Positions 1-63,749 of a DNA stretch of 64,000 bases are shown piece by piece. Positions within the stretch are counted from its first letter, which is position 1; each line of letters opens with the position of its first letter. The translations under genes were made by a program, and so were the position numbers. The stretch is from an uncultured marine group III euryarchaeote (GTDB lineage Archaea; Thermoplasmatota; Poseidoniia; MGIII; CG-Epi1). The notes beneath the pieces were generated by a model that was given only the letters and a program-made list of their open reading frames with translations, made no database searches and had not been told where the DNA came from. The stretch covers positions 2,505-66,504 of the forward strand of contig CACAGG010000001.1 in the NCBI GenBank assembly GCA_902531985.1. Direction: 5' to 3'.

Positions 1-429
1 CAAAAATGAAACCAAACCTACTACAAGAAGTAAAAGGGCTCCAAGTGAATCAATGTAAGTTCCAAATTCAAAAGCATATGTTTGCCCGCTGAACCAAACC
101 CTGCTTGATTCCTCAAAGCCTCCGTGCAATGAATTTGTTATGAGCACTTCATATGCTACTGATAAAGAAAAGACAGAAGAAAGACCAACTCCAACTAGTG
201 CTATAGAACCGCCTCTTCTAGGATCATAATGACCAAACAATAAAATAAACAAAAAAGCTACAATAGGAAAAACTGGAATCATCCATGCAACGCTTACAAA
301 AGACTTTGAGAAACCTTCCGTAAAAACAAAAAGTGTCAAGATTGCAGCTCCTATGTGTAGAGAAAAACCATGGAAAAATTCGTGAATGATAAAGTTATAT
401 TTCTTAACATCCGAAATTGTTTCAGACAC
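1..429 (-). CDS. nuoL: NADH-quinone oxidoreductase subunit L (antiporter-like), N-terminal part; C-terminus lies beyond window start
   Basis: Minus-strand frame is open from the window edge. Hand translation gives ...MIPVFPIVAFLFILLFGHYDPRRGGSIALVGVGLS...SRVWFSGQTYAFEFGTYIDSLGALF, which matches the NuoL N-terminus (E. coli ...WTWMSVGDFNIGFNLVLDGLSL). It lies immediately downstream of nuoK in the operon. The start is ambiguous: ATG at 282 or GTG at 429 abutting the nuoK stop. Confidence 0.7.
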   Translation of the reverse strand, partial: MSETISDVKKYNFIIHEFFHGFSLHIGAAILTLFVFTEGFSKSFVSVAWMIPVFPIVAFLFILLFGHYDPRRGGSIALVGVGLSSVFSLSVAYEVLITNSLHGGFEESSRVWFSGQTYAFEFGTYIDSLGALLLLVVGLVSFL

Positions 430-430
430 G

Positions 431-733
431 CTACCACCTCAACCTATTCAACAAGTCTAATTCTATTGTGTCCCTTTGCTCAAACAAACTCAATAATATT
501 GCTAAGCCTATTGCAACTTCTGCCGCAGCAATTGCAGTCACAAACAAAGCTACTACTTGGCCAGACAGATCATGATAATAACTTGAGAAACCTATAAAAT
601 TTATATTTGCAGCAGTAAGCATTATTTCTACTGACATTAAGACAACTATTGCATTTTTATTTTTGATGACACCGTAGGCACCTATCATCAATAAAACAGA
701 AGAGAAAATCAAGTAATTTATAGGATCAATCAT
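431..733 (-). CDS. nuoK: NADH-quinone oxidoreductase subunit K
   Basis: 100 aa with 3 TM. Conserved NuoK motif ...ALFVTAIAAAEVAIGLAILL. Position in the nuo operon. Confidence 0.9.
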   Translation of the reverse strand: MIDPINYLIFSSVLLMIGAYGVIKNKNAIVVLMSVEIMLTAANINFIGFSSYYHDLSGQVVALFVTAIAAAEVAIGLAILLSLFEQRDTIELDLLNRLRW

Positions 734-1517
734 CTCTTTCCTCTCTAGCTAAGAATACTCCAGCCTGTAAAGCAATAACCATCATAACTCCCAACAACAA
801 GAAAGGAACTTCCCAATTATTAAATACTTCAAATGCTAAAAATTTGGTAGTGTCTATGTTTAACTCTCGAAGTGGTGAAGCAACAGAACTGTATCCCTTT
901 GAGTCCTGTGCATATACGGACCAAGAATAAGTTCTTCCGTTTGTAAAATCTGAATAGGTATATTCCGTACCATCTATTTGATTTTCTTCGTGGACTATTG
1001 CAAGATTTAAATTACCATCTGATTCAGAGTGAAGTTTAATTTCAATGACATAAGAAACCGTCACTTCAGACCATAAAATAGTCAACTTCTCTCCGGACTC
1101 TTTCACAACATCAATTAATTCCGATTTCAAAATCGGATATGTATCAAATGTAGATCCTGAGATTCCAGTGTAATATACTCGCACAAAATAAGTACCAATT
1201 GGCAATCTGCCAGTAGTTGCACTATTGCTGTTAGTAAAATTACCATCAAATACTAATTCGTTTGTATCATCATCTGTAACGCTTACCCTATAATTTACAG
1301 AAACCGGATCCCAATCAAAGGTGATAGAATTTGTGTAGTGATAATAACCATCTTCAGGGAAATTAGCTATAGGTGGACAGCCCGTTTTGCAAGTATCTGG
1401 TGCTGAATCAACTACCTTAAGATTTTCCCAAGACACTGCTGAAATTGAAACCACTATGTAAATCGAAAATGTTATCACTAAAGCATCACGAAACCAAATT
1501 ACAGAACGATTAGACAT
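726..1517 (-). CDS. nuoJ: NADH-quinone oxidoreductase subunit J, C-terminal piece (TM4-TM5) carrying a ~190-aa extracytoplasmic beta-rich insertion
   Basis: The N-terminal TM (VIWFRDALVITFSIYIVVSISAV) aligns to NuoJ TM4. The C-terminal ...WEVPFLLLGVMMVIALQAGVFLAREERDD aligns to the E. coli NuoJ end (...AVELASMLLLAGLVVAFHVGREER). Between them lies a ~190-aa Thr/Ser/Tyr-rich domain with N-x-S/T sequons. The start overlaps the upstream nuoJ piece by 8 nt. Confidence 0.6.
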   Translation of the reverse strand: MSNRSVIWFRDALVITFSIYIVVSISAVSWENLKVVDSAPDTCKTGCPPIANFPEDGYYHYTNSITFDWDPVSVNYRVSVTDDDTNELVFDGNFTNSNSATTGRLPIGTYFVRVYYTGISGSTFDTYPILKSELIDVVKESGEKLTILWSEVTVSYVIEIKLHSESDGNLNLAIVHEENQIDGTEYTYSDFTNGRTYSWSVYAQDSKGYSSVASPLRELNIDTTKFLAFEVFNNWEVPFLLLGVMMVIALQAGVFLAREERDD

Positions 1518-1773
1518 CCTCGCCTCCTTTGAGAGTCCTCTTAGTCAACATAATTCCAAAGATGATTACTACTGAAATAGCTCCCACATATACTAAAACT
1601 TGAATTACTGCTAAGAACTCAGCTTCGGCAAGAATAAATATACCTGCTGTAAGAAGAAATACAGTAGATAACCAAACTACAGAATGGACAATGTCATTAC
1701 CGTTAACAACAGCCCAGGCTGCAGCTAAAATTAAACCGGCTAATATCCAAAAAAAAAGTAAATCTAAAGCCAC
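1510..1773 (-). CDS. nuoJ: NADH-quinone oxidoreductase subunit J, N-terminal piece (TM1-TM3)
   Basis: 87 aa. ...NDIVHSVVWLSTVFLLTAGIFILAEAEFLAVIQVLVYVGAISVVIIFGIML matches E. coli NuoJ ...NPVHALLYLIISLL..GALEIIVYAGAIMVLFVFVVMM. A split nuoJ (J1/J2) is known in archaeal Fpo/Nuo operons. Confidence 0.8.
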   Translation of the reverse strand: MALDLLFFWILAGLILAAAWAVVNGNDIVHSVVWLSTVFLLTAGIFILAEAEFLAVIQVLVYVGAISVVIIFGIMLTKRTLKGGEDV

Positions 1774-1777
1774 AATA

Positions 1778-2554
1778 TCACGCTTCGGTAACTTCCCCTT
1801 CTTCAGTTAAACCGCTAGAACTGGAGTTACTGATTGGCTCCATGTGCAAACAATCTGCTGGACAAACTTTAACACAAGTTGAACAACCAATACAGATAGT
1901 ATAATCGAAATATGGATTCTCTACATTACGAACTGTACCATTCTTCAATTCTTTATTAATCACACCTTCATCCATTATTATACAATTAGTAGGACAATTA
2001 TCTACACATTTACTACATCCTATACACGTTTCAGAATTCAAGATAGGTGATTCCATCATATAATTTGTAAGAGGTAATTGTGGAAGCTCGGGTAAATCAA
2101 CCTTCATAGATCTTGCAGGATAAATTAAGCCTTCACGTGAAGTATCTGCTAGCTCATAAAAATCGGTCATGGTCATTGCACCAGTAGGGCAATAATCTTC
2201 ACAAAATCCACAAAACATACAATGCCCAAAATTAATTGCAGGCCTTTCCGCTTTACTTTTTCTCTTAGCTACGTGAGAACCATACCAAGCCCTATCTTGC
2301 TCTTCATCTGACAACTCTGTAGGCTTCATCTTTAGACATTTGTTAGGACAAACTTCACCACAAATGCCGCATCCTATACACAAATCCCAAATAACTGCAT
2401 TCATTCCTCTGTATGTAGGGGGTGGTGCCCTTTTTTCGAGAGGATACATCACCGTTGTTGGCTTACCAAACGTGGATTTGAAAAATTGTTTTAATGTAAC
2501 TTTCATTGGATTAACAATAATATCCATAATACCAATATCTCTGTCACTGCTCAT
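1778..2554 (-). CDS. nuoI: NADH-quinone oxidoreductase subunit I with additional 2x[4Fe-4S] ferredoxin domain
   Basis: Four CxxCxxCxxxCP motifs (CIGCGICGEVCP, CMFCGFCEDYCP, CIGCSKCVDNCP, CIGCSTCVKVCP). 258 aa versus ~180 aa for canonical NuoI. Operon position between nuoH and nuoJ. Confidence 0.85.
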   Translation of the reverse strand: MSSDRDIGIMDIIVNPMKVTLKQFFKSTFGKPTTVMYPLEKRAPPPTYRGMNAVIWDLCIGCGICGEVCPNKCLKMKPTELSDEEQDRAWYGSHVAKRKSKAERPAINFGHCMFCGFCEDYCPTGAMTMTDFYELADTSREGLIYPARSMKVDLPELPQLPLTNYMMESPILNSETCIGCSKCVDNCPTNCIIMDEGVINKELKNGTVRNVENPYFDYTICIGCSTCVKVCPADCLHMEPISNSSSSGLTEEGEVTEA

Positions 2555-2555
2555 C

Positions 2556-3809
2556 TTAGAAAACCTCCGGAAGATTAACTATATCTGAAAAGTAAGGATA
2601 AATTTCAACCATAAATATAACAATCAAAATATTTATCAACGATAGAGGCAAGAGCTTTTTCCATCCAAGCTCTAAGATTTGATCGGTCCTAATTCTAGGG
2701 ACTGTCCATCTTATAAATATCCAAAAAATTAAGATTAGATAAACTTTGCTTAAAAACCATATTTCAGGGGGAATTGGCCAAGGACCTGCCCAGCCACCTA
2801 GGAAAAGGATTGTACAAACTGCAGCACCTGCAAAACCTCTAATATATTCTGCAGCCAAAAAGAGCATGTACCTTATTCCACTATACTCTGTAGTCCACCC
2901 CTCAACAAGCTCGGCCTCCGCTTCAGGAAGATCAAAAGGAACTCTTTCAACTTCAGCAAGAATACAAATCATAAAAACTATGAACCCCAAAAACTGTGGA
3001 ATGAAATTCCACATTGGTAGACCAAACAGCCAAGTACCTTCCTGCTGCTGCTCCACAATGGTAACTGGATCAAAAGAACCTGCCAAAAGAAAAACTCCAG
3101 CCATACTAAGAAGTAAAGGAATTTCGTAAGACATAAGCTGCGCCGCAGATCTCATACCACCAATCATTGAATATTTATTGTTTGAAGCCCAACCAGATGT
3201 TAGAACACCTATTGGAGCTATAGAAAAAGCCGCCATTATAACCATAAGACCTGCTGGAGCTGAAGAAGCTGCAAACCTATCAGACAAAGGAAATAAAACT
3301 AGTAAAAACACAGAAGATGAAATAAAAATAATAGGACCCATTGTGAATAAAAATTTATCTGCTTTAGCAGGGACAATCAGTTCTTTAGTAATAGCTTTAA
3401 TCCCATCAGCCATATTTTGTAAAATACCAATTCCCGAGTAATTATCTTTAAATCTCCAACTAGGCGCTTCGCCTGCAAGATCTTCACCTAATTCTCTAAA
3501 AGATCTAAAGGAAAGCATTGGTCCTCTTCTATCTTGTATTCTAGCTGCTATTTTTCTCTCTAAATGAATTACAAGAATAAGATTAGTCATGCCTATTGCA
3601 AACGCAATATTAACTGCAAAAGTCCAAGCCAAAGTATCCAAACCTCCATCTGTACCCAACCAATCTGCGATTGTACCTGCTGGATGACTAAAAGGAGGGA
3701 ACAAATTTTTCTGAAAATCAAAAACTGGAATCAGCATGTAATTTGCTGTCCATTCGGCCATCCACCTACAGAAACTGAATAAACTCATTTGTCTGTTTCT
3801 CCGATACAA
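2556..3809 (-). CDS. nuoH: NADH-quinone oxidoreductase subunit H
   Basis: Polytopic membrane protein. Conserved ...HLERKIAARIQDRRGPM... NuoH/ND1 motif. Has an N-terminal extension relative to the bacterial NuoH. Confidence 0.9.
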   Translation of the reverse strand: MYRRNRQMSLFSFCRWMAEWTANYMLIPVFDFQKNLFPPFSHPAGTIADWLGTDGGLDTLAWTFAVNIAFAIGMTNLILVIHLERKIAARIQDRRGPMLSFRSFRELGEDLAGEAPSWRFKDNYSGIGILQNMADGIKAITKELIVPAKADKFLFTMGPIIFISSSVFLLVLFPLSDRFAASSAPAGLMVIMAAFSIAPIGVLTSGWASNNKYSMIGGMRSAAQLMSYEIPLLLSMAGVFLLAGSFDPVTIVEQQQEGTWLFGLPMWNFIPQFLGFIVFMICILAEVERVPFDLPEAEAELVEGWTTEYSGIRYMLFLAAEYIRGFAGAAVCTILFLGGWAGPWPIPPEIWFLSKVYLILIFWIFIRWTVPRIRTDQILELGWKKLLPLSLINILIVIFMVEIYPYFSDIVNLPEVF

Positions 3810-4885
3810 ATATCAATACTTCCCATTATCGAGGGAATGTCTGCTACTTTGTACCCCTTTAGATAATGAGGGCATGCCGATATTGTTGTAAACATAGGAC
3901 TTTTAATTTTCCAACGATAAGGCCTATCGCTTCCGTCACCAACCAGATACATCAAAGCTTCCCCCCTTGAATCTTCTGTGCGTCTAAACGCATCGCCTGA
4001 AGCACGTATAGGAACCTTAGAAGCCATTGTAGGTCCTGCAGGCATTTTCTTGAAACATTCCCTAATAATTTTAACTGATTCTTTCATCTCATCAATTCTT
4101 ACCATGTATCTGCTAAAACAATCACCGTAGCCGGGACCTGCTTCCCTAGTCTGAATCTCCCAATCTATTTCATCATATATTTCATAACTATCCTGCTTAC
4201 GCAAATCAAATTTAGTACCACACCCTCTAAGATTGGGGCCAGTAATTCCCAGATTCATTGCTTGTGATGCGGTAAAATTACCTACATCCTCTGTACGCAT
4301 TCTAAATATTTTTGAATTCTCAAATAAATCTGCGTACTCATCTAAACGTTGCTCGAACAATTTTAAAATTCTTTCTGTTTTTTCTTCAAATCCGTCCGGT
4401 AAATCTCTCTTAACACCACCAATTCGGATGTAATTGTACAAAAGACGACTTCCACTAGGGAGTTCCAAAAGATTCAGGAATAATTCTCTATCTCTCCAAA
4501 AATACAATGCACCAGTAATATGACCTAAATCAGGCATGTATGCTCCAGCCCACATCAAGTGTGAAGCCAAACGCTGTAATTCCAACATTATTGTTCGAAT
4601 ATACTGTGCTCTTTGCGGAACTTCTACCCCCATTAATTCTTCCACTGAGAGTGCATAACAATGAGTCCAAGTTGTAGAACTAGCGTAACACAATCTATCA
4701 GTTAAGGTTGTGTTCATGAAATACTTGCGCCTTTCTCCCATTTTCTCTACAGACCTGTGGAGATAACCTAACTCTGGATCTGCATCAACTATAGTTTCAC
4801 CATCAACCTTTACCTTCAAAGTCCAGAGACCATGGGTCATAGGATGCTGCGGACCCATACTAATCCACATCTCAGCCATTACCAC
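3785..4885 (-). CDS. nuoD: NADH-quinone oxidoreductase subunit D (49 kDa)
   Basis: [15 protein letters not shown]-terminus and [NiFe]-hydrogenase large-subunit-like fold signature. Operon position. Confidence 0.9.
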
Positions 4886-5358
4886 TCCTCCTCGTGTATT
4901 TCATACACGTAATCTTTCCTCAAAGGATGGCCTGCAAATCCCTCTGGAAGAAGAACTCTTCTTAAATCTGGATGACCCAAAAAATAGATACCCATCAAAT
5001 CATAAGCTTCTCTTTCATGCCAATTAGCACCGAACCAAAGATCAGATACTGATTCGATAGTAGGAGTATCTCGTTCCAAAAAAATATGAATTTCAATCAT
5101 CACAGTCTTAGGGCTATCTTTGATGAAAATCGAACCTTCTATTACTGAAAAATGATAAACCAATTCAAATTGAGGCTGATTATCTATCGCACTAATCAAT
5201 GAACAATGTTCAAAGCCATAGTCTTCTTTAAGTGAGATAAAAAAATCTTTAGAATCTTCTTTGCCTAAATCCAATTTTACTACGTTATCCCTAATCAGCG
5301 CGACATCAGAAACACCTTTATGCGATGAAAGTTTCTTCATGAATTTAGTTATTTCCAT
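4879..5358 (-). CDS. nuoC: NADH-quinone oxidoreductase subunit C (30 kDa)
   Basis: 159 aa; ...[20 protein letters not shown]... is a conserved NuoC motif. Confidence 0.85.
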
Positions 5359-5360
5359 AT

Positions 5361-6008
5361 TTATCTCCTTAGGAATAAACCAGGTTCTTTTTCTCTAATT
5401 TTTTTCTGTAGAGTAAGGAAACCGTGCATCAAAGCTTCCGGCCTCACTGGGCAGCCAGGGATGTAAACATCGACTGGCATGAAGGTATCAGCACCTGCAA
5501 CTACAGAATAAGAATCCCAATAAGGACCACCAGAAATGGCACACTCCCCCATGGCTACAACCCATTTAGGTTCAGGCATCTGCTCATAAAGCGTCTTAAG
5601 TTTAGGTCTCAACTTTTCACAAACCGGCCCGTTAACTATCAAAACATCACACTGTCTTGGTGAAGAACGATAAACTAAGCCAAGCCTATCTATGTCGTGA
5701 TCAGGAGCTGAAGCTTGCCCCATTTCAATTGCACAACACATAATTCCAAAGTGCAAAGGGTGTGGAGAAAATCGCTGGGCATAGTTGAATATCGGCCTTG
5801 TGACTCTGTCAACAACTTCTCTCATCCCTGTGGCTTCAGCTGCATTATAAACTGCATTATCAATCCACTTTAGAAACTGATCAGAGCGTAGCGCAAGCCA
5901 ATCGCCTGCTGGAGGATCTTCCATTATTTTTTCCGAATCTGTCGTTTTTGAACCAAGACCTCTTCTAAGACTTGGATTACCGCCTATGCGTTTAGAACTC
6001 ATATCCAA
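5361..6008 (-). CDS. nuoB: NADH-quinone oxidoreductase subunit B (20 kDa, N2 cluster)
   Basis: [11 protein letters not shown] and IPGCPVRPE Cys motifs for cluster N2. Has an N-terminal ~60-aa extension. Confidence 0.9.
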
Positions 6009-6358
6009 ATCACGTCCTCTTTTTTAAACGCATACCATAAACCTAACAGAGTTAATAGAAGAAATAATAGCATAACCACCTTTGCTGCGACATCTAAATC
6101 TAGGTAAACTTGAACCCAAAGAATAAGAAAAACCACGACTAAATCAAAAACAACGAAAAGAATCGCGAACATATAGTATTGGAAATGGAACTGAATGTGT
6201 GCCTCACCAACAGGAACCTCGCCACATTCATAAGTTGAATTTTTTAGAGGATTATCATTATGAGGTCTAAAGAACCTACCGGCGAAAAATGTTAACACAG
6301 GAAATGATAACGCAATAAGCGCAAAAATCCCTATAGGAATATACTCGTGTCCCAGCAC
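5999..6358 (-). CDS. nuoA: NADH-quinone oxidoreductase subunit A
   Basis: 119 aa with 3 TM. ...YECGEVPVGEAHIQFHFQYY... is a NuoA/ND3 motif. First gene of the operon. Confidence 0.85.
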   Translation of the reverse strand: MLGHEYIPIGIFALIALSFPVLTFFAGRFFRPHNDNPLKNSTYECGEVPVGEAHIQFHFQYYMFAILFVVFDLVVVFLILWVQVYLDLDVAAKVVMLLFLLLTLLGLWYAFKKEDVIWI

Positions 6359-13420: not shown

Positions 13421-14122
13421 ATGACTGTAATTAGCTGTACTAACTTATCGAAAAAATATGAAGAGGTTTTAGCCCTTAATTCAGTAGACATTAAAATAGA
13501 GCAAGGCGAGTTTTTCGGATTACTAGGCCCAAATGGTGCTGGAAAGACTACATTTCTAAAAATATTAACGGGACAAATCAAAGCAACCCAAGGGGAAGCT
13601 TCAATATTTGGGATGAAAATAGATCAGAATGTTCTGGATGTTAAACGAAAAATTGCTATTGTTCCTGAGCAGGAATCCCCGCCTAGCTTCCTAACACCAA
13701 GAGAAGTACTAGAGATGGTTACTTCTATACGTAAAACTGAAAAGCCTAGAATAGATTATTGGATTGAATTTTTTGAGCTTGAGGCAATGGAAGGAAGAGT
13801 TTGTAGAAACTTGTCTAGAGGACAGAAACAAAAAGTAATGCTAGCTGCAGCATTTATTTCTGAAGTTAAACTAATGTTTTTGGATGAACCTTTCATAAAT
13901 CTAGACCCTATTGTTCAGACTAAAGTTAGAGACTGGTTAGCTGAATATGTAAGAGAGGGAGGCACTGTTTTTCTAAACACACATTTATTAGAAAATGCAC
14001 AAAGGCTTTGTGATAGGGCTGCAATAATTCACAATGGAGAAATACAATCTTTAATAAAAATAAATGAGCTGGAAGAACAAGATATGAGTTTAGAAGAGCT
14101 TTTCCACGAAATAATACTATGA
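13421..14122 (+). CDS. ABC transporter ATP-binding protein
   Basis: Walker A GPNGAGKTT, ABC signature LSRGQKQK, Walker B LMFLDEP. Confidence 0.9.
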   Translation: MTVISCTNLSKKYEEVLALNSVDIKIEQGEFFGLLGPNGAGKTTFLKILTGQIKATQGEASIFGMKIDQNVLDVKRKIAIVPEQESPPSFLTPREVLEMVTSIRKTEKPRIDYWIEFFELEAMEGRVCRNLSRGQKQKVMLAAAFISEVKLMFLDEPFINLDPIVQTKVRDWLAEYVREGGTVFLNTHLLENAQRLCDRAAIIHNGEIQSLIKINELEEQDMSLEELFHEIIL

Positions 14123-15555
14123 ATCAATTAATTCTTTGGAGAATGCTACAAGAAGAAATACGTCTTAATACTAGTTTTGCAAGTGGAAAAGGTTTCTATT
14201 CTTTCCCGATACTAGTGGCGATTAGTGGAATCCTTGCTGTTACTTTTAGTAATCAAATGATTTCTGATATGGGGTATGTTGAATACCTTGAAGTCATGCA
14301 TATTGGACTCATGTTCTATGGTGTTTTTGCAGGCTCACTTGCTTTTTTTGGAAACGAGTTCCTAGAACGAATCTTTGGATATCTTGGACTGATAATAGGA
14401 CTGCCAACCACACAACCAATAACTCAAAGGAAAATGACACTACTATATTTCATTAAAGAATTTATCTTTTACTCCTTTTTTACGTTGATACCTGCTTTTT
14501 TGGGGGGCTTGATTGGGGCCTATCTAATGGAAATAAGTATGCTTAATCTAACAAAATTTGGAATTTCTCTCATCTTTTCATTTTTAATGGGACTATCTTT
14601 TGCTTATCTTATTTCTAGCTTTTACAGAATATCGTGGAAATTGAGCGTATTTGGAGGCTTACTTGCTATGATAATATATGCTATAGCTGTTAGAGATATC
14701 TCTATTACACATTCATTGGAATGGTATTTCAATGGAGAAATAAAATATCTTCTTTATTCACTTGTTACCACCATAATCCTAGCCACTGTTGCAACTTTAC
14801 TAGTTACAGACCAATATGAACAAGGGACTGTTAGAACCATAGGATACAAGGACAGATTGAAAGAATACATCGATAATTTTTCATGGGCCTCAAAATTATC
14901 TGAGCCAACTATCATTTCTAAAGAAAGAATAGATCTTCAAAGAAGTAAGACTGGCACAAAAATGTTTTTTTCATTTGCTTTCCCTCTAGGTATTTTAACC
15001 TTCATGAATTGGTTCATAGATAAGGGATTACCAATTCAGGTAGATTTTAACACCATATTTTATGGGGTAATGGTTGGCTTTTTTGGGACTATGATTTATT
15101 CATGGTTAAACACTATAGATAGTCCTACTTTCTATTCCACATTACCAGTTACTGTTTCTGACGTTATTAGAGCCAGACTTGTTTTATTCTTTACAATAAC
15201 TTGGTGGATACCATTACTATTTTTGACATTAATAGCATACATGAGTTCAGAAATTAATCTTCTACCTATTGGCATTATAGTTATGATTACAGTAGGCATG
15301 TATATTGTAAATTATACTGCATGGTCAACAGGCTTGAGGACAAATTCAGCTCTATTTGATGCAATTATTTTTCTCAAATTCTTTGTAATCTCGGTGCCAC
15401 CAATGATTGCTATGACTATCTTGAGTCTAGCAATTAGTTACAGCATTTCTACAGTTCTAATTGCACTCTCTATAATTTGCGGAGTTCTCGCACTGTGTAG
15501 TATCTTCTTTTACAATAGAATTGAAGTTAAATGGGAAAACGAAACATTCGATTAA
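14119..15555 (+). CDS. ABC transporter permease (ABC-2 type, multi-TM)
   Basis: 478 aa, highly hydrophobic. Translationally coupled to the upstream ABC ATPase. Confidence 0.7.
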   Translation: MNQLILWRMLQEEIRLNTSFASGKGFYSFPILVAISGILAVTFSNQMISDMGYVEYLEVMHIGLMFYGVFAGSLAFFGNEFLERIFGYLGLIIGLPTTQPITQRKMTLLYFIKEFIFYSFFTLIPAFLGGLIGAYLMEISMLNLTKFGISLIFSFLMGLSFAYLISSFYRISWKLSVFGGLLAMIIYAIAVRDISITHSLEWYFNGEIKYLLYSLVTTIILATVATLLVTDQYEQGTVRTIGYKDRLKEYIDNFSWASKLSEPTIISKERIDLQRSKTGTKMFFSFAFPLGILTFMNWFIDKGLPIQVDFNTIFYGVMVGFFGTMIYSWLNTIDSPTFYSTLPVTVSDVIRARLVLFFTITWWIPLLFLTLIAYMSSEINLLPIGIIVMITVGMYIVNYTAWSTGLRTNSALFDAIIFLKFFVISVPPMIAMTILSLAISYSISTVLIALSIICGVLALCSIFFYNRIEVKWENETFD

Positions 15556-41064: not shown

Positions 41065-43452
41065 ATGAAAGAAGAACTGCAGCAGATTCAGGCAGTAGCC
41101 ATTGTGACATTTTTGTGCGTTCTAATTTCTATACATAGTACAGGAGAATACGGTGAGTGGTTTGAAATAAGTGGAACCAAACAAGATATAATTAACCCTG
41201 GCAATCCTGAAAACGGTACTGAAATAAAAACTTTTGAGTATAGTTATCACTCTGGCTATTATACACAATACGAAGACGGGCAAACTGATAAACAAAACTA
41301 TGATAGTGCAAATTGCGGTTCTTGTACTGAAAAATCCAGTGTACTTCAAAATGTTACTAGACTAGCATACGGTACGGCGATTTTAGCATTAGGTGTTGCT
41401 TACATGGCAAGAGATTCTATCAATCACTTACATAAAAAAAATCTAAGAAGATCTCTCAGCAATCTAAAATATTCTGCAATACTTGTTTTGATTTTAGGTC
41501 TTACAACAGGATCCATGTTTTACATGGGTTGGACTGAGGCACTCGTTAGAGATGAAGCTACTATTAATGGCGACTTAGGTGAGCAACAAGTTTTAGGATG
41601 TATTGGACAGCCGGGATTTTTGACATTTTACGGAGGCGATGCCTGCTTAGAGTATGTTAACTCTCTTGAGCAGGGTGAAGCTGATCTACTAAGTTCAAGA
41701 GTTAATCCCATTGAGTGGGGACCAGGCATAGGATTTTTCGTTGTAATATTAGGTTCTCTAATTACAGGGGGAGGTACGCTGTATATTTTGGGTAGTATCG
41801 ATGAAGAATGGCAAGCTATTCTAAAAAGACAAGACCTAATTGAAAGGCAACAAAAAATACAGGATGGAGAAATTGAAAAGAATAAAGATTTATTAGATGA
41901 ATTTGATGAAACTGAACAAAAATTAAAGGATGCTGAAAGAAGAATCGAAGAAGTAAGGACTAAAGCTGATGAAATTGACTATCAAGGAATTGACGACTTA
42001 GATCAAGAACTAGACAGACTTACTGCATTAAACCAAAGTGTTGAAACTCTTAACAATTCTTTAGACAGCAAATTAAAGACTGCTCGAATAGCTACATCTG
42101 AAGTTGAGAAAAGGGCTAGAATGGCTGAAAAAGAATTAAATGATGATTTAGCAGCAAAAACAAATTTGGAAAACGAAATTGAGGATTTGAGAGGTAAACA
42201 TGAGAATGATATGCGGCTTAGCGATAGAATGACTCGAGAAATTAGCTCACTAAGAAAGATGACTGAAGATGCTGATGAGAGAGCATTAAAGGCCGAAAAG
42301 AAACTCAAATTGGAAAAACCTGACACAATTAATGCATTAGAGTCATACGATTCTGTAAAAGCTTCTTACGACAAAACTGTTGACGAAAAAAATAATCTTG
42401 AAAAAGAAATAATGGAATATGAGCAACAAACATTAGAGGCAAATGAAAGGGAAAAAGCCGCAGATTCTGAACGCAAGGAAGCTGCACAAAGAAGAAAAGA
42501 CCTAGACAGGGAAGTGAAACTTATGGAGAAAAACAAAAAAAGAATTAACGACAAATTCACAACACTAACTACTGGATTGGAAAAAGCAAAAAAAGATTTA
42601 GCAGGCGCTCGAGAAAAGGCCGCCGTAACTCTGAGTGAACTTGATTTGGAAAGAGAGACTATTGTCGAATTGCAGCAAGAAACTGAAAAATTTAGAACAA
42701 AGGAAAGTGAAATTGTCGAACTTACAGATTCTTTAAAAGAATTACAAGGACAAGTTGGAAACCAGAAAGAAACTAACAGTGGAATTGAAAAAGAATTAAA
42801 GGAAGAGACTAACCGCAAAAAGAAGACTGAAAAAGAATTAAAATCATTAGAGAAAGCATCTGAACAAGTAAGTAAAGTCATGGAAAGTTTGAAGAAACAA
42901 TTTGATGCTGCAAAAGATGAACTGAATATCGCAATGGATGATCGAAATAAAGCTGAAAGATTGCTGGAAACTGAAAAAACTGAACACGAAAAATTGAAAG
43001 AAGATCTAGAGTTTTTACAAGGCGCTACAATAGGAAGTGAGGAAGAAACTGAACGTAAAATAAAAGCCATGGAAATAGAAACTCCTAAAGCCAAAGAAGA
43101 AACTAGAGAGATGAAAGAAGAAGCTGATAGCTTGGCTGAACAAAACCAAGATTTAGAAGCTAAAATCAAAGAAGCTCGATTGGGAACTATTGAAGAGGCT
43201 ACCTCTGAAAATCAAGAAACTGCTGAAGCAAGTTCTGAAGAAAGTATCGCAACAATAGGCTCGAGTATAATAGTCAAAAATTTAGCAAAAGAAACTGAAC
43301 ATAACTTCCAACTGGTAAATCCTGATCAAGCAGATCCTAAAACAGGTAAATTACCTTTAACTAATCCTATAGCAAAGGCACTAGAAGGAACTAAAGAAGG
43401 CGATGAAGTTAGTGTTGGACCAAATACTTTTAAGGTCATAAAATTAAATTAA
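41065..43452 (+). CDS. membrane-anchored long coiled-coil protein with GreA/GreB C-terminal (FKBP-like) domain
   Basis: 795 aa. N-terminal signal/TM plus ~4 TM. About 500 aa of E/K-rich heptad coiled coil. The C-terminal ...NFQLVNPDQADPKTGKLPLTNPIAKALEGTKEGDEVSVGPNTFKVIKL aligns to the E. coli GreA C-terminus (...[51 protein letters not shown]). Confidence 0.65.
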   Translation: MKEELQQIQAVAIVTFLCVLISIHSTGEYGEWFEISGTKQDIINPGNPENGTEIKTFEYSYHSGYYTQYEDGQTDKQNYDSANCGSCTEKSSVLQNVTRLAYGTAILALGVAYMARDSINHLHKKNLRRSLSNLKYSAILVLILGLTTGSMFYMGWTEALVRDEATINGDLGEQQVLGCIGQPGFLTFYGGDACLEYVNSLEQGEADLLSSRVNPIEWGPGIGFFVVILGSLITGGGTLYILGSIDEEWQAILKRQDLIERQQKIQDGEIEKNKDLLDEFDETEQKLKDAERRIEEVRTKADEIDYQGIDDLDQELDRLTALNQSVETLNNSLDSKLKTARIATSEVEKRARMAEKELNDDLAAKTNLENEIEDLRGKHENDMRLSDRMTREISSLRKMTEDADERALKAEKKLKLEKPDTINALESYDSVKASYDKTVDEKNNLEKEIMEYEQQTLEANEREKAADSERKEAAQRRKDLDREVKLMEKNKKRINDKFTTLTTGLEKAKKDLAGAREKAAVTLSELDLERETIVELQQETEKFRTKESEIVELTDSLKELQGQVGNQKETNSGIEKELKEETNRKKKTEKELKSLEKASEQVSKVMESLKKQFDAAKDELNIAMDDRNKAERLLETEKTEHEKLKEDLEFLQGATIGSEEETERKIKAMEIETPKAKEETREMKEEADSLAEQNQDLEAKIKEARLGTIEEATSENQETAEASSEESIATIGSSIIVKNLAKETEHNFQLVNPDQADPKTGKLPLTNPIAKALEGTKEGDEVSVGPNTFKVIKLN

Positions 43453-60152: not shown

Positions 60153-63100
60153 ATGGGGCCCAATCTAAAGATTATCACTTTCTTACTGGCGCTTACTGGG
60201 GTGATATTTTTTACTGAAAATTCAACTGCCGAAATGGATCCTTTTATAGACGATGTGTTGTACTCTAAAGAGGGTTCTGATACTAAAGTTTTAGTCCAGA
60301 GTGGAAGAGACAACGCTACCTTCTACAAATACTTAATTTTGGATGATTTTTCAGACGCTCCTGAGAATTGGGCATCTAAAAATTTTAATGATTCAAGTTG
60401 GTCCAATGGAGCTGCGCCGTTTGGTGATAGAAGATACAACAACGTAGATCCTAATGTAGACTGGGACACTTCAGGAAGCTCACCCTATAACAATGATATA
60501 ATATTAATAAGACACAAATTTCAATTAAATGGAATAGTAACTTCAGCTGAAATTGATGTAGCTTTTGCAAATTATTGCACTCCTTACCTAAATGGTAATT
60601 TGATATATGATGAAAGAGGAGGGAATTCACATGGTGCTGAATACTGGAATGATGATGGGACTGAAGGAATATCCTCTAGTTCTTTTGAACCGGGAGAAAA
60701 TGTTTTAGCTGTTTATGGAAGAGATTATGTATATGGTTCTGGAAATCAAAATAGACAATGGTTAGACCTTCAAATCACGGCCCAAGTTTTTGAATCTACT
60801 AATGAATCTATTATATTTGGTGACTCAGTAATTGTAGCAATAACTGGTGGAAACGAAGGGGATGAAAGTGTTGATGAATATTTCATTAATGTTACTTCGA
60901 ACAACAAAACAATTAAAACATTCTATTATGACGCTATACCTGCTTACGGTTATGGTTTATCATGGCTAGAATGGAAGCCTGAAATAATTGGCTTAAACCA
61001 ATTAACTGTAAATGTAACTTGTAACTGTAGCGATATCAATAATACAAATAATTTACAAGTATTAAATCTAACAACTGTAATTTATTCATTAGAGACTACA
61101 CATGATGAGGAATTGCTAATTGTCAATCAAAGCAGACTTTTTAACCGATTAATCCAAGTTAAAAATACTGGAAATATTACTGACAATGTTACACTATCTA
61201 TTGAAGACGAAACACTTGGAAATTGGAATGCACAATTTACTCCAAATAATTTCGAAATTGAAGCTGGTGAAACGAAAGACGTACTATTGACGGCAGTTGC
61301 CCCTGAATCTCTAGAAGATGGCTACTACAATTTAACATTTAGAACGCAAAGTCAATATAATTATGTGACTACAGCAACATTATTGCAAAGAGGCTCTTAT
61401 GGAGGCGTAGACTGGAAATGGATCAATTCAACTACCCATGAAGAACTATATGATAATATCAATTGGACGAAATTAAACTTCAATGATACTGATTGGAAAA
61501 ACGGCAGTACTCCTTTTGGAGACTCGGATGTTGATGGAATAGATTACAATACTTTCTGGGAAGGTGACAACTATGCTTATTTCCGTCACATTATTGATAT
61601 TCCAGACATTAATCTATACGAGGGAGGGTTCATGAGCGTAAATGTAGCAACAAATAATTACGGTGACTATTACATCAATGGAGCCTATGTTTTCGGAGAT
61701 ATGGATATAGGGGATGGGCATGGAGCTGAATATTGGAATGATGAGTTTCAAATTTACTTGAATTATCTTAACCAAGGCCCTAATATCATTGCAAGCGTTG
61801 TTTCTAATCCGCAAAACACACAGTGGTTTGATGAAGAAATACTAATTACTTTTCCACAAGCTAATCTTTGGAACTACAAAAGTGAAATCAGTAGTATACC
61901 TTTATATTTGGATTCAACTCCCCCTACTACTAGAGTAATAGGAGAAGGATTTTATCGTAATAGCTCTACATTTGAGGTTAAGTGGAAAAGTATTTCCAAC
62001 TATGATGATTTATCTGGATATTACATTTATTATTTAGAAAAGGATGGTGGAAATTTAGGCGAATGGACCCTATTAGGATTTTACACTAATGAATCTACTA
62101 ACTTTACAGGCCAAGGAAACTTAACCTATCGATTCAAATCAATAGCCATAGACAATAATGGAAATGTCGAGAACAAAGGAACATATGATACCGAGATGAG
62201 AGTTGATTTAATTACTCCAAAGTCTACATTATGGATTGTTGAAGGGAATATCGAATTTACAAATCTCGATGGAATTACTATCCAATGGAAAGCGAACAAC
62301 ACAATGGACATACAGGCGTATTTGATAGAATACAGAGATTCAAAAAATCAAACTTGGAAAGATTTTGGAGCATTTACTTCCACTGGAGAATATTGGTTTT
62401 CACCTGAAGAAGATGAGACTTTTGAAATTAGATCCCGCACAATAGATTATGCTGGCAATAAAGAAATTAAACTGGAAAGTGACATCATTGTCACGTTTGA
62501 TAGATTAAAACCAGAAGTAAAACTTAATTCTCTCAATCAATTAACTGGTTCTGATCAACTGATTATTAGCATTGAAAATAGAAGTGAAGGCTTGGATAAT
62601 ATTGAATTAGAGTATGCAAGACTTTTGGAAGATGTTGAGGATGTATTAGAATGGAGAGAAGTTGAATCTGAGTGGCAGAATGAGGAGATCTTGATGAGTC
62701 CTCTCATTGATGGATACACTTATTATTTTAGAATAAACCCCTCTGATTTGGCAGGTAATAAGTGCCCAAGAGAGCCTTACGAATATCAAGTATTTATCAG
62801 CTCCAATCAAACTGAAAAGCTGACTCTGCCAGTAATGCCACTAAAACCAATTATGATTGGGAAAATAAGAAACATAGAGATGTCTGCTGATGAAAATGGA
62901 GATGGTATTTTTGAAAAAACTCTTGAAGAATATACTGGTATTGATTTAAGAGCGATGAAAGCAAACCAGTACTGGGTAAATTATTTGACTGGTGAAATCA
63001 TTTTTGGTGATGGACAAGACGGATATATGCCACCTAATAATTCATCATTAAATCTAGCATTTAATGGATATGATTTGGTAACGACGGTTGATCTGAAACT

Positions 63101-63749
63101 TCCGGAACCTATTGAGCAAATCGAATACGTAATAGAAGATAGAAATAATGTGACTATTACGTGGAAAAAGCCTTTGGATGCAACCAGCTTTATAGTTGAA
63201 AGTAAAAAAAATTTTAGTATGCCTTGGATTTCTGTGACTACTATAGATATCAAAGACAATAATGAACCAAGCTACAAAGCTACAAATTTGAGTGATGGAT
63301 TCCATTATTATCGAGTGATTTCTGTGGATAGAATGGGCTATACTAATCCAAACATGATAAATGAACACATTAGAGTTATAATTGAAGCTGAAGTTAATAG
63401 TGTAATTGAGGCTGAACCAAAGCAAACTGAAGATTTGTATTTGTATGGTCTTGTCGGAGTGGTATTAGGTTCAATTGCAATATACGGCGCCTCACGATTA
63501 CTTAAAAGTGAAACTGATGTTGAAGTCGCAAGCAGACCTATGCTAATTCCAGTTGATAATACTTCAGAAGAGCAAACCACTATAACTGAAAGTGAGGTAC
63601 TAGAAACATTTAGTGTAGTGCCTGGAAGCCAATTTTCAAGACAATTAATGTATGTGTGTGAAAAAGGATGTATGAAGGAATTTGAAGTAGAAGGGGAAGA
63701 TGAGGAAGTTATGTGTCCTCATTGCGGAACAATAGGGGATTTAATTTAG
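60153..63749 (+). CDS. large surface (S-layer/adhesin-like) glycoprotein with signal peptide, internally duplicated beta-rich domains, C-terminal TM anchor and cytoplasmic zinc-ribbon tail
   Basis: 1198 aa. N-terminal MGPNLKIITFLLALTGVIFFTENSTA. Dozens of N-x-S/T sequons. A duplicated ~200-aa unit (..W.NG..PFGD...Y.NG......G..HGAEYWND.. at aa ~90-170 and ~445-525). TM LYLYGLVGVVLGSIAIYGASRLL. Tail C..C...18...CPHCG. Confidence 0.6.
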   Translation: MGPNLKIITFLLALTGVIFFTENSTAEMDPFIDDVLYSKEGSDTKVLVQSGRDNATFYKYLILDDFSDAPENWASKNFNDSSWSNGAAPFGDRRYNNVDPNVDWDTSGSSPYNNDIILIRHKFQLNGIVTSAEIDVAFANYCTPYLNGNLIYDERGGNSHGAEYWNDDGTEGISSSSFEPGENVLAVYGRDYVYGSGNQNRQWLDLQITAQVFESTNESIIFGDSVIVAITGGNEGDESVDEYFINVTSNNKTIKTFYYDAIPAYGYGLSWLEWKPEIIGLNQLTVNVTCNCSDINNTNNLQVLNLTTVIYSLETTHDEELLIVNQSRLFNRLIQVKNTGNITDNVTLSIEDETLGNWNAQFTPNNFEIEAGETKDVLLTAVAPESLEDGYYNLTFRTQSQYNYVTTATLLQRGSYGGVDWKWINSTTHEELYDNINWTKLNFNDTDWKNGSTPFGDSDVDGIDYNTFWEGDNYAYFRHIIDIPDINLYEGGFMSVNVATNNYGDYYINGAYVFGDMDIGDGHGAEYWNDEFQIYLNYLNQGPNIIASVVSNPQNTQWFDEEILITFPQANLWNYKSEISSIPLYLDSTPPTTRVIGEGFYRNSSTFEVKWKSISNYDDLSGYYIYYLEKDGGNLGEWTLLGFYTNESTNFTGQGNLTYRFKSIAIDNNGNVENKGTYDTEMRVDLITPKSTLWIVEGNIEFTNLDGITIQWKANNTMDIQAYLIEYRDSKNQTWKDFGAFTSTGEYWFSPEEDETFEIRSRTIDYAGNKEIKLESDIIVTFDRLKPEVKLNSLNQLTGSDQLIISIENRSEGLDNIELEYARLLEDVEDVLEWREVESEWQNEEILMSPLIDGYTYYFRINPSDLAGNKCPREPYEYQVFISSNQTEKLTLPVMPLKPIMIGKIRNIEMSADENGDGIFEKTLEEYTGIDLRAMKANQYWVNYLTGEIIFGDGQDGYMPPNNSSLNLAFNGYDLVTTVDLKLPEPIEQIEYVIEDRNNVTITWKKPLDATSFIVESKKNFSMPWISVTTIDIKDNNEPSYKATNLSDGFHYYRVISVDRMGYTNPNMINEHIRVIIEAEVNSVIEAEPKQTEDLYLYGLVGVVLGSIAIYGASRLLKSETDVEVASRPMLIPVDNTSEEQTTITESEVLETFSVVPGSQFSRQLMYVCEKGCMKEFEVEGEDEEVMCPHCGTIGDLI

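Follow-up and report, generated by a model that had tools for sequence, protein, structure and literature searches.

The 64,000-nucleotide stretch of DNA analysed here (the window) carries on its minus strand the nuo cluster nuoA-B-C-D-H-I-J1-J2-K-L, in which a 263-aa open reading frame (ORF), ORF 726–1517, lies between nuoJ1 and nuoK. This locus raises the question of whether the ORF is half of NuoJ, a membrane subunit of complex I, and, if it is, what the large domain between its membrane helices could be doing there. The initial annotation had read this ORF and ORF 1510–1773 as a split NuoJ, and both were found at these coordinates on the minus strand (Table 1), with nuoJ1 encoding TM1–TM3. 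It had also placed the DNA near Marine Group II (MGII); the closest genomes proved to be those of Marine Group III (MGIII), and the complex I encoded here is that of an MGIII archaeon and of the 11-subunit type.

Table 1. Features of the nuoI–nuoL segment of the window (aa, residues of the respective product; AF2, structure model).
Feature	Positions	Strand	Description	Supporting evidence
nuoL, 5′ part	1..429	−	Runs off the window edge; the nuoM position is beyond the edge	
nuoK	431..733	−	100 aa	PF00420, E 5e-27; NuoK equivalog, E 1e-34
nuoJ2	726..1517	−	C-terminal half of NuoJ, 263 aa: candidate TM4, linker, FN3-like domains 1 and 2, loop helix, TM5	
TM5	741..812	−	aa 236–259, followed by predicted cytoplasmic tail REERDD	AF2 helix 236–259; hhalign E 5e-12
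Loop (amphipathic) helix TTKFLAFEVFN	819..851	−	aa 223–233	AF2 helix 224–232; high-confidence hhalign columns
FN3-like domain 2	852..1145	−	aa 125–222	Pfam fn3 match at aa 137–212, E 5.5e-4
FN3-like domain 1	1146..1337	−	aa 61–124; holds the N93-F-T95 sequon (1233–1241)	AF2 strands 65–119
Linker	1338..1430	−	aa 30–60; Cys43-x3-Cys47 pair (1377–1391) and P49...P54-x-D-G-Y-x-H60 motif	pLDDT 56–61
TM4 (candidate)	1431..1508	−	aa 4–29, preceded by predicted cytoplasmic R4/R10 tail	AF2 helix 4–27
nuoJ1/nuoJ2 translational-coupling junction	1510..1527	−	GGAGG 1523–1527, nuoJ2 ATG 1515–1517, nuoJ1 stop TAA 1510–1512; 8-nt overlap	
nuoJ1	1510..1773	−	N-terminal half of NuoJ, 87 aa, TM1–3 including conserved TM3	PF00499, NuoJ equivalogs, PDB NuoJ/NdhG chains
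nuoI	1778..2554	−	Upstream neighbour of nuoJ1; 258 aa, four ferredoxin-type 4Fe-4S motifs	TIGR01971 (NuoI) at aa 24–147, E 7e-41

The end of nuoJ2 and the start of nuoK likewise overlap by 8 nt, and related loci show the same nuoJ1/nuoJ2 overlap. Wherever flanking sequence was recovered (among 36 GTDB loci and metagenomic loci L039–L045), the genes followed the order nuoI-J1-J2-K-L and their start and stop codons overlapped. NuoI contains, in addition, a PorD-like dicluster region at aa 166–239. The splitting of NuoJ alone is not unusual in archaea, being already known from the nuoJ1J2KLMN arrangement of Haloquadratum (PMC5496347). As in the window, split archaeal NuoJ is encoded by two neighbouring genes that overlap and stand between nuoI and nuoK, with the break in the cytoplasmic loop from TM3 to TM4; J2 supplies TM4, a tentative assignment in the window, and TM5. 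Locus L037 has this arrangement with products of 92 and 80 aa and no insert. However, an ordinary J2 is ~70–80 aa long with a TM4–TM5 loop of ~30 aa, whereas the MGIII J2 has 263 aa and two FN3-like domains in that loop. Canonical NuoJ/Nqo10/ND6/NdhG proteins (PF00499) share with the MGIII pair TM1–3, the loop helix, TM5, the acidic/basic tail and the operon position, but are single polypeptides of ~160–200 aa rather than two genes with an insert, and each of the solved NuoJ-type chains that were matched (162–252 aa) is too short to hold a comparable insert.

The nuoJ1 product matched PF00499 over positions 2–62 of 146 (E 9.6e-20; 71 bits, above the cut-off of 33), NuoJ equivalogs over positions 6–81 of 172 (E 1.8e-19) and solved NuoJ/NdhG chains in the PDB over residues ~5–83 (E 3e-11). 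The nuoJ2 product of the window gave no match to PF00499 at E ≤ 1, and its scores against curated NuoJ models (14.5–19.3 bits) were far under the cut-offs of 110–154, as expected of a half-protein interrupted by a 185-aa insert. Among the models available for split NuoJ (NCBIfam PRK06433-type N-halves, the 72-aa C-half PRK06439 and an FpoJ model), PRK06439 was matched at model positions 37–72 only, with 17 bits against a cut-off of 121. Since the NuoJ signal was limited to the last ~45 aa of nuoJ2, profiles of the C-terminus were used. The C-terminus matched the NuoJ equivalog NF005168 at positions 117–170 of 172 (E 8e-4), divergent members of the nuoJ2 family matched PF00499 at positions 98–146 of 146 (E 8e-5), and the best match of the C-terminal profile in the PDB was 6hum_G, residues 138–168. 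A profile alignment to the C-terminus of NuoJ had been set beforehand as the check on this assignment. In hhalign, the nuoJ2 family aligned to canonical NuoJ with a probability of 97.5% (E 5e-12, 41% identity) over 44 columns comprising the loop helix and TM5. The nuoJ2 product carries the NuoJ motif of this region, LFxxW/YxxPF...G...GVFLA-R/K-E, and its helix at aa 223–233 is the counterpart of the conserved helix that precedes TM5 in canonical NuoJ. With residues 37–215 removed, nuoJ2 matched residues 77–175 of a 175-aa NuoJ from end to end in a global hhalign alignment. A word-index homologue search with the C-terminal profile returned fragments of nuoJ2's own family only, and an exhaustive HMM search with the same profile retrieved a canonical NuoJ (P0152; PF00499 E 1e-32) and an insert-free 80-aa NuoJ2 (P0151). 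These data demonstrate that ORF 726–1517 is nuoJ2, the C-terminal half of a split NuoJ. The hydrophobic helix at aa 4–27, which has basic residues before it, faced canonical TM4 in the global alignment with low column confidence; its tentative assignment as TM4 was made from position and hydrophobicity.

Were the ORF instead an unrelated FN3 membrane protein situated in the operon, with NuoJ truncated or completed elsewhere, its public annotation as a hypothetical or FN3-domain protein would be accounted for, as would the search of PDB sequences with the whole-protein family profile, which yielded weak FN3 matches only. Such a protein would not be expected to show the C-terminal homology to NuoJ (by hhalign, by PF00499 in divergent members and by the NuoJ equivalogs), to occupy exactly the gene position of nuoJ2 in split-J archaea, or to be translationally coupled on both sides. 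On these grounds we rejected this reading, which we consider extremely improbable.

The span between the two membrane helices of nuoJ2 (aa ~28–235) measures ~205 aa, compared with ~30 aa in the canonical 175-aa NuoJ P0152, and the insert is therefore ~185 aa long, close to the ~190 aa first claimed. In the AF2 model (pLDDT 77), a helix at aa 4–27 is followed by strands spanning aa 65–221, by a short helix (aa 224–232) and by a final helix (aa 236–259), and the strands form two β-sandwiches. When the insert was compared with the PDB using Foldseek, all listed matches except two were FN3-type proteins, mostly tandem pairs, with E values down to 5e-5 and probabilities up to 1.0. Pfam fn3 (PF00041) matched 75 of 108 nuoJ2 family members at E<0.01 (best, 4e-6); the window protein itself scored 20.5 bits, under the 25-bit gathering cut-off. 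Thus, the insert is FN3-like in fold and a borderline member of PF00041 by sequence. An Ig/FN3-type fold had been anticipated by the initial annotation, but as a single ectodomain; AF2, Foldseek and hhalign resolve it into two domains that are homologous to each other (hhalign probability 92%, E 5.6e-7), W69 being paired with W149 and Y76 with Y156. These residues and the pair Y110/Y197 were invariant across all lineages and correspond to the FN3-type core Trp of strand B and core Tyr of strands C and F, the strand labels being taken over from FN3 by analogy. Both the tandem FN3 fold and the place of the insert in nuoJ2 are thereby demonstrated. Known tandem FN3 pairs (PF00041; PTP-delta Fn1-Fn2, titin A77-A78 and neogenin FN5-6) likewise consist of consecutive seven-stranded β-sandwiches with conserved Trp/Tyr core residues. 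However, sequence similarity to them is marginal, TM-scores of 0.2–0.3 against extended pairs point to a different inter-domain geometry, and the nuoJ2 pair, unlike the known ones, is set between two TM helices of a respiratory subunit. In the linker ahead of domain 1, the motif P49...P54-x-D-G-Y-x-H60 was invariant in all nuoJ2 lineages aligned; the low pLDDT of this segment is as expected if it becomes ordered only against a partner.

By sequence rules, the insert is extracytoplasmic, as had been proposed. K/R-rich tails, read from the sequence, flank TM3/TM4 and follow TM5, in line with the positive-inside rule, the main clade shares a Cys pair, and nearly all family members keep a glycosylation sequon. 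Of the N-glycosylation sequons listed originally, NFT (aa 93–95) stands, N93-x-T95 being present in 107 of 108 family members, but NSNS and NGRT are not N-x-S/T sequons. The Cys43/Cys47 pair is invariant within the main MGIII clade; as a universal feature it was rejected, because it is absent from Bathy1, MGIII-9 and one further lineage. The ectodomain probably carries a glycan and, in members of the main clade, probably also a disulfide bond.

Homologues of nuoJ2 were found in 141 protein clusters. The same insertion, which was to be sought in related genomes, was present together with the gene order in 36 GTDB species and also in additional metagenomic lineages, and every named lineage that carries it belongs to MGIII, not to MGII. 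A search for NuoJ1 homologues aimed at MGII and other Thermoplasmatota gave 186 matches, and the 120 that were listed were all at least 80% identical (MGIII). The number of clusters, the shared gene order and the low dN/dS confirm that ORF 726–1517 is not a chance ORF.

NuoJ/ND6 proteins differ in the length of their TM4–TM5 loop, and some nuoJ2 family members hold further insertions of 30–125 aa (P0109, P0110 and P0115). Both facts would suit an insert that is a functionless passenger, merely accommodated by the loop. However, dN/dS of the ectodomain was 0.02–0.19 (11 pairs), indicating that it is conserved and under purifying selection. Moreover, the two-domain architecture persists, with ~15 invariant residues, at 27–36% identity between MGIII Epi, Bathy1, MGIII-9 and one further lineage, and the insert was kept in all 36 species matched, whose marine genomes are small. 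A neutral passenger was rejected on these three grounds and appears highly improbable.

We consider it probable that ORF 726–1517 is a nuoJ2 whose tandem FN3 ectodomain serves as a built-in supernumerary module for structure or docking. An ancestor of the MGIII order may have gained an FN3-like domain in the outer-face TM4–TM5 loop of NuoJ, and a tandem duplication of this domain would then have followed. Because an FN3 domain has its N-terminus at one pole and its C-terminus at the other, the chain would come back to the membrane if the two domains were packed antiparallel, an arrangement that we infer here, and could continue there into the conserved loop helix and TM5. In complex I, into which nuoJ2 is probably incorporated, the ectodomain would stand on the extracytoplasmic face above the NuoJ/K/A–NuoN junction, where it could stabilise the assembly of the split NuoJ and the membrane arm and offer a surface for protein docking. 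A structural or docking role thus seems most likely, a purely structural one being the default explanation. Supernumerary subunits in the intermembrane space of mitochondrial complex I (e.g. CHCH) are stabilised by disulfides and are thought to help assembly and stability. The resemblance is functional only, in that both represent non-catalytic extra mass on the P side of the membrane arm; the mitochondrial subunits are separate chains of unrelated fold and without homology, whereas here the extra mass lies inside a core subunit.

The ectodomain might alternatively contact the cell envelope (an S-layer or pseudo-periplasm) and so anchor complex I in the membrane or determine its position there. 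Its extracytoplasmic location and conserved sequon would fit such a contact, and archaeal surface proteins often contain FN3/Ig-like domains, but a side-by-side FN3 pair would probably reach only ~4 nm, which is short for an S-layer, and the operon has no linked envelope gene. We regard envelope contact as improbable.

Additional evidence on docking came from NuoM. In insert-bearing lineages, NuoM has an N-terminal cupredoxin that scores above the Pfam cut-off for Copper-bind; in L001, a relative 88% identical, a NuoL of 708 aa is followed by cupredoxin-NuoM. The copper-ligand motif (H...C-x-P-H...M) was found on NuoM in 29 of the 36 insert-bearing GTDB loci and also in Bathy1 loci, and the outgroup L037, with its split but insert-free NuoJ, has neither feature. 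The complex I of these lineages therefore has at least two grafted outer-face domains, and the presence of the cupredoxin in the same lineages raises the plausibility of a protein-docking role. FN3 domains are typical protein–protein interaction modules. Accordingly, the FN3 pair could be a platform on which outer-face electron-transfer partners dock, either the NuoM cupredoxin or a respiratory complex (cytochrome b/Rieske or a terminal oxidase), with complex I as the core of a tethered supercomplex. However, the co-occurrence of insert and cupredoxin may simply mirror shared ancestry within one order, and every solved structure of complex I has NuoN placed between NuoJ and NuoM, so that direct contact of NuoJ2 with NuoM is not assured. 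Furthermore, L040 has the insert but a different NuoM ectodomain without a cupredoxin match, and L007 keeps the insert, apparently without the cupredoxin motif. Electron-transfer docking is thus possible but unlikely. Still more tentative is the proposal that the NuoJ tandem FN3 scaffold and the NuoM type-1 copper cupredoxin together form an outer-face superstructure that physically connects the arm that pumps protons with the respiratory chain's blue-copper/oxidase end, giving a tethered supercomplex in which complex I itself bears a redox-active copper site; we know of no description of such a superstructure for any complex I.

Few proteins in bioenergetics are as highly conserved as the core membrane subunits of complex I, and in the examples known to us extra mass is provided by separate accessory subunits, not by folded domains built into the core subunits themselves. 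In the MGIII archaea, an uncultured order that is abundant in the ocean, NuoJ contains a folded ectodomain under selection, positioned on the outer face near the E-channel region, which links quinone chemistry with proton pumping. If the NuoJ and NuoM modules cooperate, this would be a natural case in which "supernumerary" structure evolved on a prokaryotic complex I, possibly with a tethered electron carrier, and a tractable model for why such additions arise. A literature search (NuoJ with FN3, NuoM with cupredoxin, MGIII with NADH dehydrogenase) found neither grafted domain described, and a paper on MGII terms the complex I of that group "canonical" (PMC6336850). Proteins of the nuoJ2 type are labelled "hypothetical protein" or FN3-domain protein in public records, and automated pipelines would therefore count half of NuoJ as missing from MGIII complex I; relabelling the MGIII J2 proteins is a practical annotation fix.

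The 87-aa ORF (nuoJ1) matched PF00499 at positions 2–62 of 146 (E = 9.6e-20, over the curated cut-off), NuoJ equivalogs at positions 6–81 of 172, and solved NuoJ/Nqo10/NdhG chains over residues ~5–83 (E = 3e-11), thereby identifying its predicted product as the N-terminal half of NuoJ. Searched singly, the 263-aa ORF (nuoJ2; product J2) matched four NuoJ/FpoJ models with its last ~55 residues (E = 8e-4 to 0.02), far under the curated cut-offs, and family-level evidence was therefore built. Homologue searching gave 141 clusters at E ≤ 0.001, with 46–89% identity to the window protein among the 120 listed. A 48-column profile of the J2 family C-termini (A3), compared exhaustively and with no word index to 1.84 billion representatives, detected outside the family a 175-aa full-length NuoJ (P0152; PF00499, E = 1e-32), another NuoJ (P0150, E = 2e-23) and an insert-free NuoJ2 of 80 aa (P0151). 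Alignment of the 108-sequence J2 family to these canonical sequences by hhalign gave a probability of 97.4% (E = 1e-11). When residues 37–215 were deleted, the local alignment comprised the last 44 residues at 41% identity (probability 97.5%, E = 5e-12), and the global alignment covered residues 77–175 of the 175-aa NuoJ, starting where TM3 ends and reaching the C-terminus. Divergent family members matched PF00499 directly at positions 98–146 of 146 (E = 8e-5). The best PDB match of the C-terminal profile, NdhG (6hum_G, residues 138–168; E = 0.29), was weak alone; the same chain was matched at residues 10–83 by the 87-aa ORF. The initial annotation had proposed a split NuoJ, to be abandoned if the 263-aa ORF failed to align with the C-terminal helices. 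Because it does align there, an unrelated gene lying in the operon is the less likely reading, and we assign the 263-aa ORF as NuoJ2. This protein is very probably integral to the enzyme, supplying TM4 and TM5; the helix at aa 4–27 is the candidate TM4, judged by position, hydrophobicity and a low-confidence stretch of the global alignment.

Both ORFs belong to a compact minus-strand nuo operon (window positions 1–6358; see table) that lacks nuoEFG, a trait shared with other archaeal enzymes of the 11-subunit type. The nuoJ1 stop codon (TAA, 1510–1512) and the nuoJ2 ATG (1515–1517) lie in overlapping genes, GGAGG is located 5 nt upstream of this ATG (1523–1527), and the nuoJ2 end shares 8 nt with the beginning of nuoK; these features indicate that nuoJ1, nuoJ2 and nuoK are, by prediction, translationally coupled. 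The NuoH ORF (417 aa) opens at a TTG and shares 25 nt with nuoD, which leaves the real start codon uncertain. L037, an outgroup locus, has a shorter NuoH (372 aa) than the window and a shorter NuoL (650 aa) than the related loci (656–735 aa). NuoI, a 258-aa protein of identical length in all related loci, contains four ferredoxin-type 4Fe-4S motifs; past its normal core (aa 24–147) lies a second dicluster region of PorD-like type (aa 166–239), which points to two additional Fe-S clusters in a complex that has no NuoEFG.

Coordinates of nuo genes and other ORFs in the window and in related loci
Feature	Position	Strand	Remark
nuoA	5999-6358	-	
nuoB	5361-6008	-	
nuoC	4879-5358	-	
nuoD	3785-4885	-	
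nuoH	2556-3809	-	
nuoI	1778-2554	-	
87-aa ORF (nuoJ1)	1510-1773	-	
263-aa ORF (nuoJ2)	726-1517	-	
nuoK	431-733	-	
nuoL, 5' part	429 to window edge	-	
478-aa ORF	14119-15555	+	
795-aa ORF	41065-43452	+	
1198-aa ORF	60153-63749	+	
cupredoxin-NuoM	L001:6951-8468; L003:7284-8789; L036:6958-8670; L042:13116-14984		past window's left edge
NuoM N-terminal extension	L040:9036-9700		
nuoL + nuoM, one ORF	L007:5071-8772		

Basic tails occur after TM3 (TKRTLK), at the J2 start (R4 and R10) and at the C-terminus (REER), and acidic residues (AEAEF) join TM2 to TM3. The positive-inside rule therefore places the gene split in the cytoplasmic TM3–TM4 loop and, as the initial annotation held, the insert outside the cell. 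The same placement is supported by a sequon, N93-x-T95, in 107 of the 108 sequences, and by a C43-x3-C47 pair that is invariant in, and specific to, the main clade. The strings NSNS and NGRT, previously offered as glycosylation sites, are not sequons. NuoJ has five helices and is N-out and C-in, the same topology as deduced here.

AF2, run on the 108-sequence alignment (mean pLDDT 77), predicted helices at aa 4–27, 224–232 and 236–259, a poorly predicted linker (aa 30–60, pLDDT 56–61), and strands at 65–119 and 129–221 forming two beta-sandwiches. Foldseek against the PDB returned 53 matches at E ≤ 1e-3, with probability up to 1.0; among the 50 listed, 48 were FN3-type domain proteins, mostly tandem pairs such as PTP-delta Fn1-Fn2, titin A77-A78, LAR and neogenin FN5-6, and the other two were phage lambda tail-tip proteins. 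TM-scores were only 0.2–0.3, indicating that the inter-domain geometry differs from that of extended tandem pairs. Pfam fn3 scored 20.5 bits on domain 2 of the window J2, under the 25-bit cut-off, and matched 75 of the 108 relatives (best E = 4e-6). Together with the models, these matches bear out the Ig/FN3-type fold first suggested. The two domains aligned with each other in hhalign (probability 92%, E = 5.6e-7), a homology that points to tandem duplication of one domain as the origin of the insert. Because an FN3 domain begins at one pole and ends at the other, an antiparallel pair would be a simple route for the chain back to the membrane. Some family members (P0110 and P0115, 385–387 aa; P0109, 288 aa; P0099, P0105 and P0116) carry further insertions, including a ~125-aa acidic segment between both FN3 domains, a 31-aa Cys-containing linker segment, and a ~14-aa repeat within domain 1. 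Judged from these sequences, the ectodomain is clearly prone to elaboration.

The insertion, which had been flagged for a check in related genomes, was present in 36 GTDB species (one genome surveyed per species) and three further lineages, and the order nuoI-J1-J2-K-L was found at every locus with recovered flanks. The search patterns and thresholds detect conserved forms of the motif, and a diverged one, for example in MGII, would be overlooked. The best match (88%) came from a single-cell genome of Marine Group III. Named records were MGIII (CG-Epi1, A2.5-MGIII) or bore generic Poseidoniia/Euryarchaeota labels; two were labelled 'Thalassarchaeaceae', at odds with their nearest relatives. 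A high-GC group including 'A2.5-MGIII-9' has a J2 of 238–241 aa (30–34% identity), the 241-aa form (P0145/P0275) is attributable to MGIII CG-Bathy1 from the names on adjacent Nuo proteins, and P0147 is the J2 of one more high-GC lineage. The architecture is retained across all lineages at 27–36% identity, with P49, P54, H60, F67, W69, Y76, L105, Y110, W149, Y156, G194, Y197, W199, V201, S214 and the C-terminal motif invariant. Nei-Gojobori dN/dS of the ectodomain was 0.02–0.19 in 11 close pairs; the ectodomain is therefore under purifying selection. That the insert is a neutral passenger is a less likely explanation.

In these lineages, nuoL is followed by a nuoM whose product bears a signal peptide and, fused to its antiporter-like body, an N-terminal cupredoxin. 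This domain matched Copper-bind (PF00127; E = 4e-7 to 1e-10, over the cut-off) and has a type-1 copper ligand motif, HNV...C-x-P-H-x2-4-M; this motif occurs in 29 of the 36 GTDB loci and 3 of the 4 Bathy1 loci. These counts include incomplete loci, as several motif-less ones stop before nuoM. Since the window stops inside nuoL, the cupredoxin-NuoM was read from relatives, including L001, the locus with the 88%-identical J2. In the outgroup L037, which has no insert, NuoM is a plain protein of 519 aa lacking the motif. MGIII complex I thus appears to carry at least two grafted outer-face domains, the NuoJ FN3 pair and the NuoM cupredoxin. In L040, the P0147 lineage, the ~180-aa NuoM extension is a secreted domain, not a cupredoxin, and contains a G-C-N-C-H-G motif. 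L007 encodes nuoL and nuoM as one 1233-aa ORF in which the cupredoxin motif was not found; this could reflect fusion with copper-domain loss or an assembly frameshift.

We favor a role for the ectodomain as a built-in supernumerary module, which, on the outer side, would buttress both the split subunit and the J/K/A-N junction and would also present a surface for docking. The linker motif, invariant but poorly predicted, resembles a segment that would become ordered against another subunit. A domain placed outside might also contact the cell envelope, which we regard as less likely. The more specific proposal, that the ectodomain holds the NuoM cupredoxin or another respiratory complex in place, is rather unlikely, though likelier than envelope contact; the cupredoxin accompanies the insert in most loci, and L040 retains the insert with a different NuoM domain. 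The interest of the insert is moderate alone, and would be higher if the two grafted domains, FN3 pair and cupredoxin, make a functional outer-face assembly.

The split itself is ordinary in archaea: nuoJ1/nuoJ2 are also reported from Haloquadratum (PMC5496347), and L037 ('Euryarchaeota archaeon') shows the split (92 + 80 aa) but no insert. The novelty is the insert, the present case being a split archaeal NuoJ plus a grafted tandem-FN3 ectodomain. A literature search found no paper in which NuoJ has an FN3 insert or NuoM a cupredoxin, and public records annotate J2 as 'hypothetical' or as an FN3-domain protein.

Elsewhere in the window, Pfam matches at E ≤ 1e-5 were not found for the 1198-aa and 478-aa ORFs. 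In the 795-aa ORF, the last 60 residues correspond to a GreA/GreB C-terminal domain (PF01272, E = 9.5e-12) and a Pfam match was not found for the remainder, an unusual combination in an archaeon.
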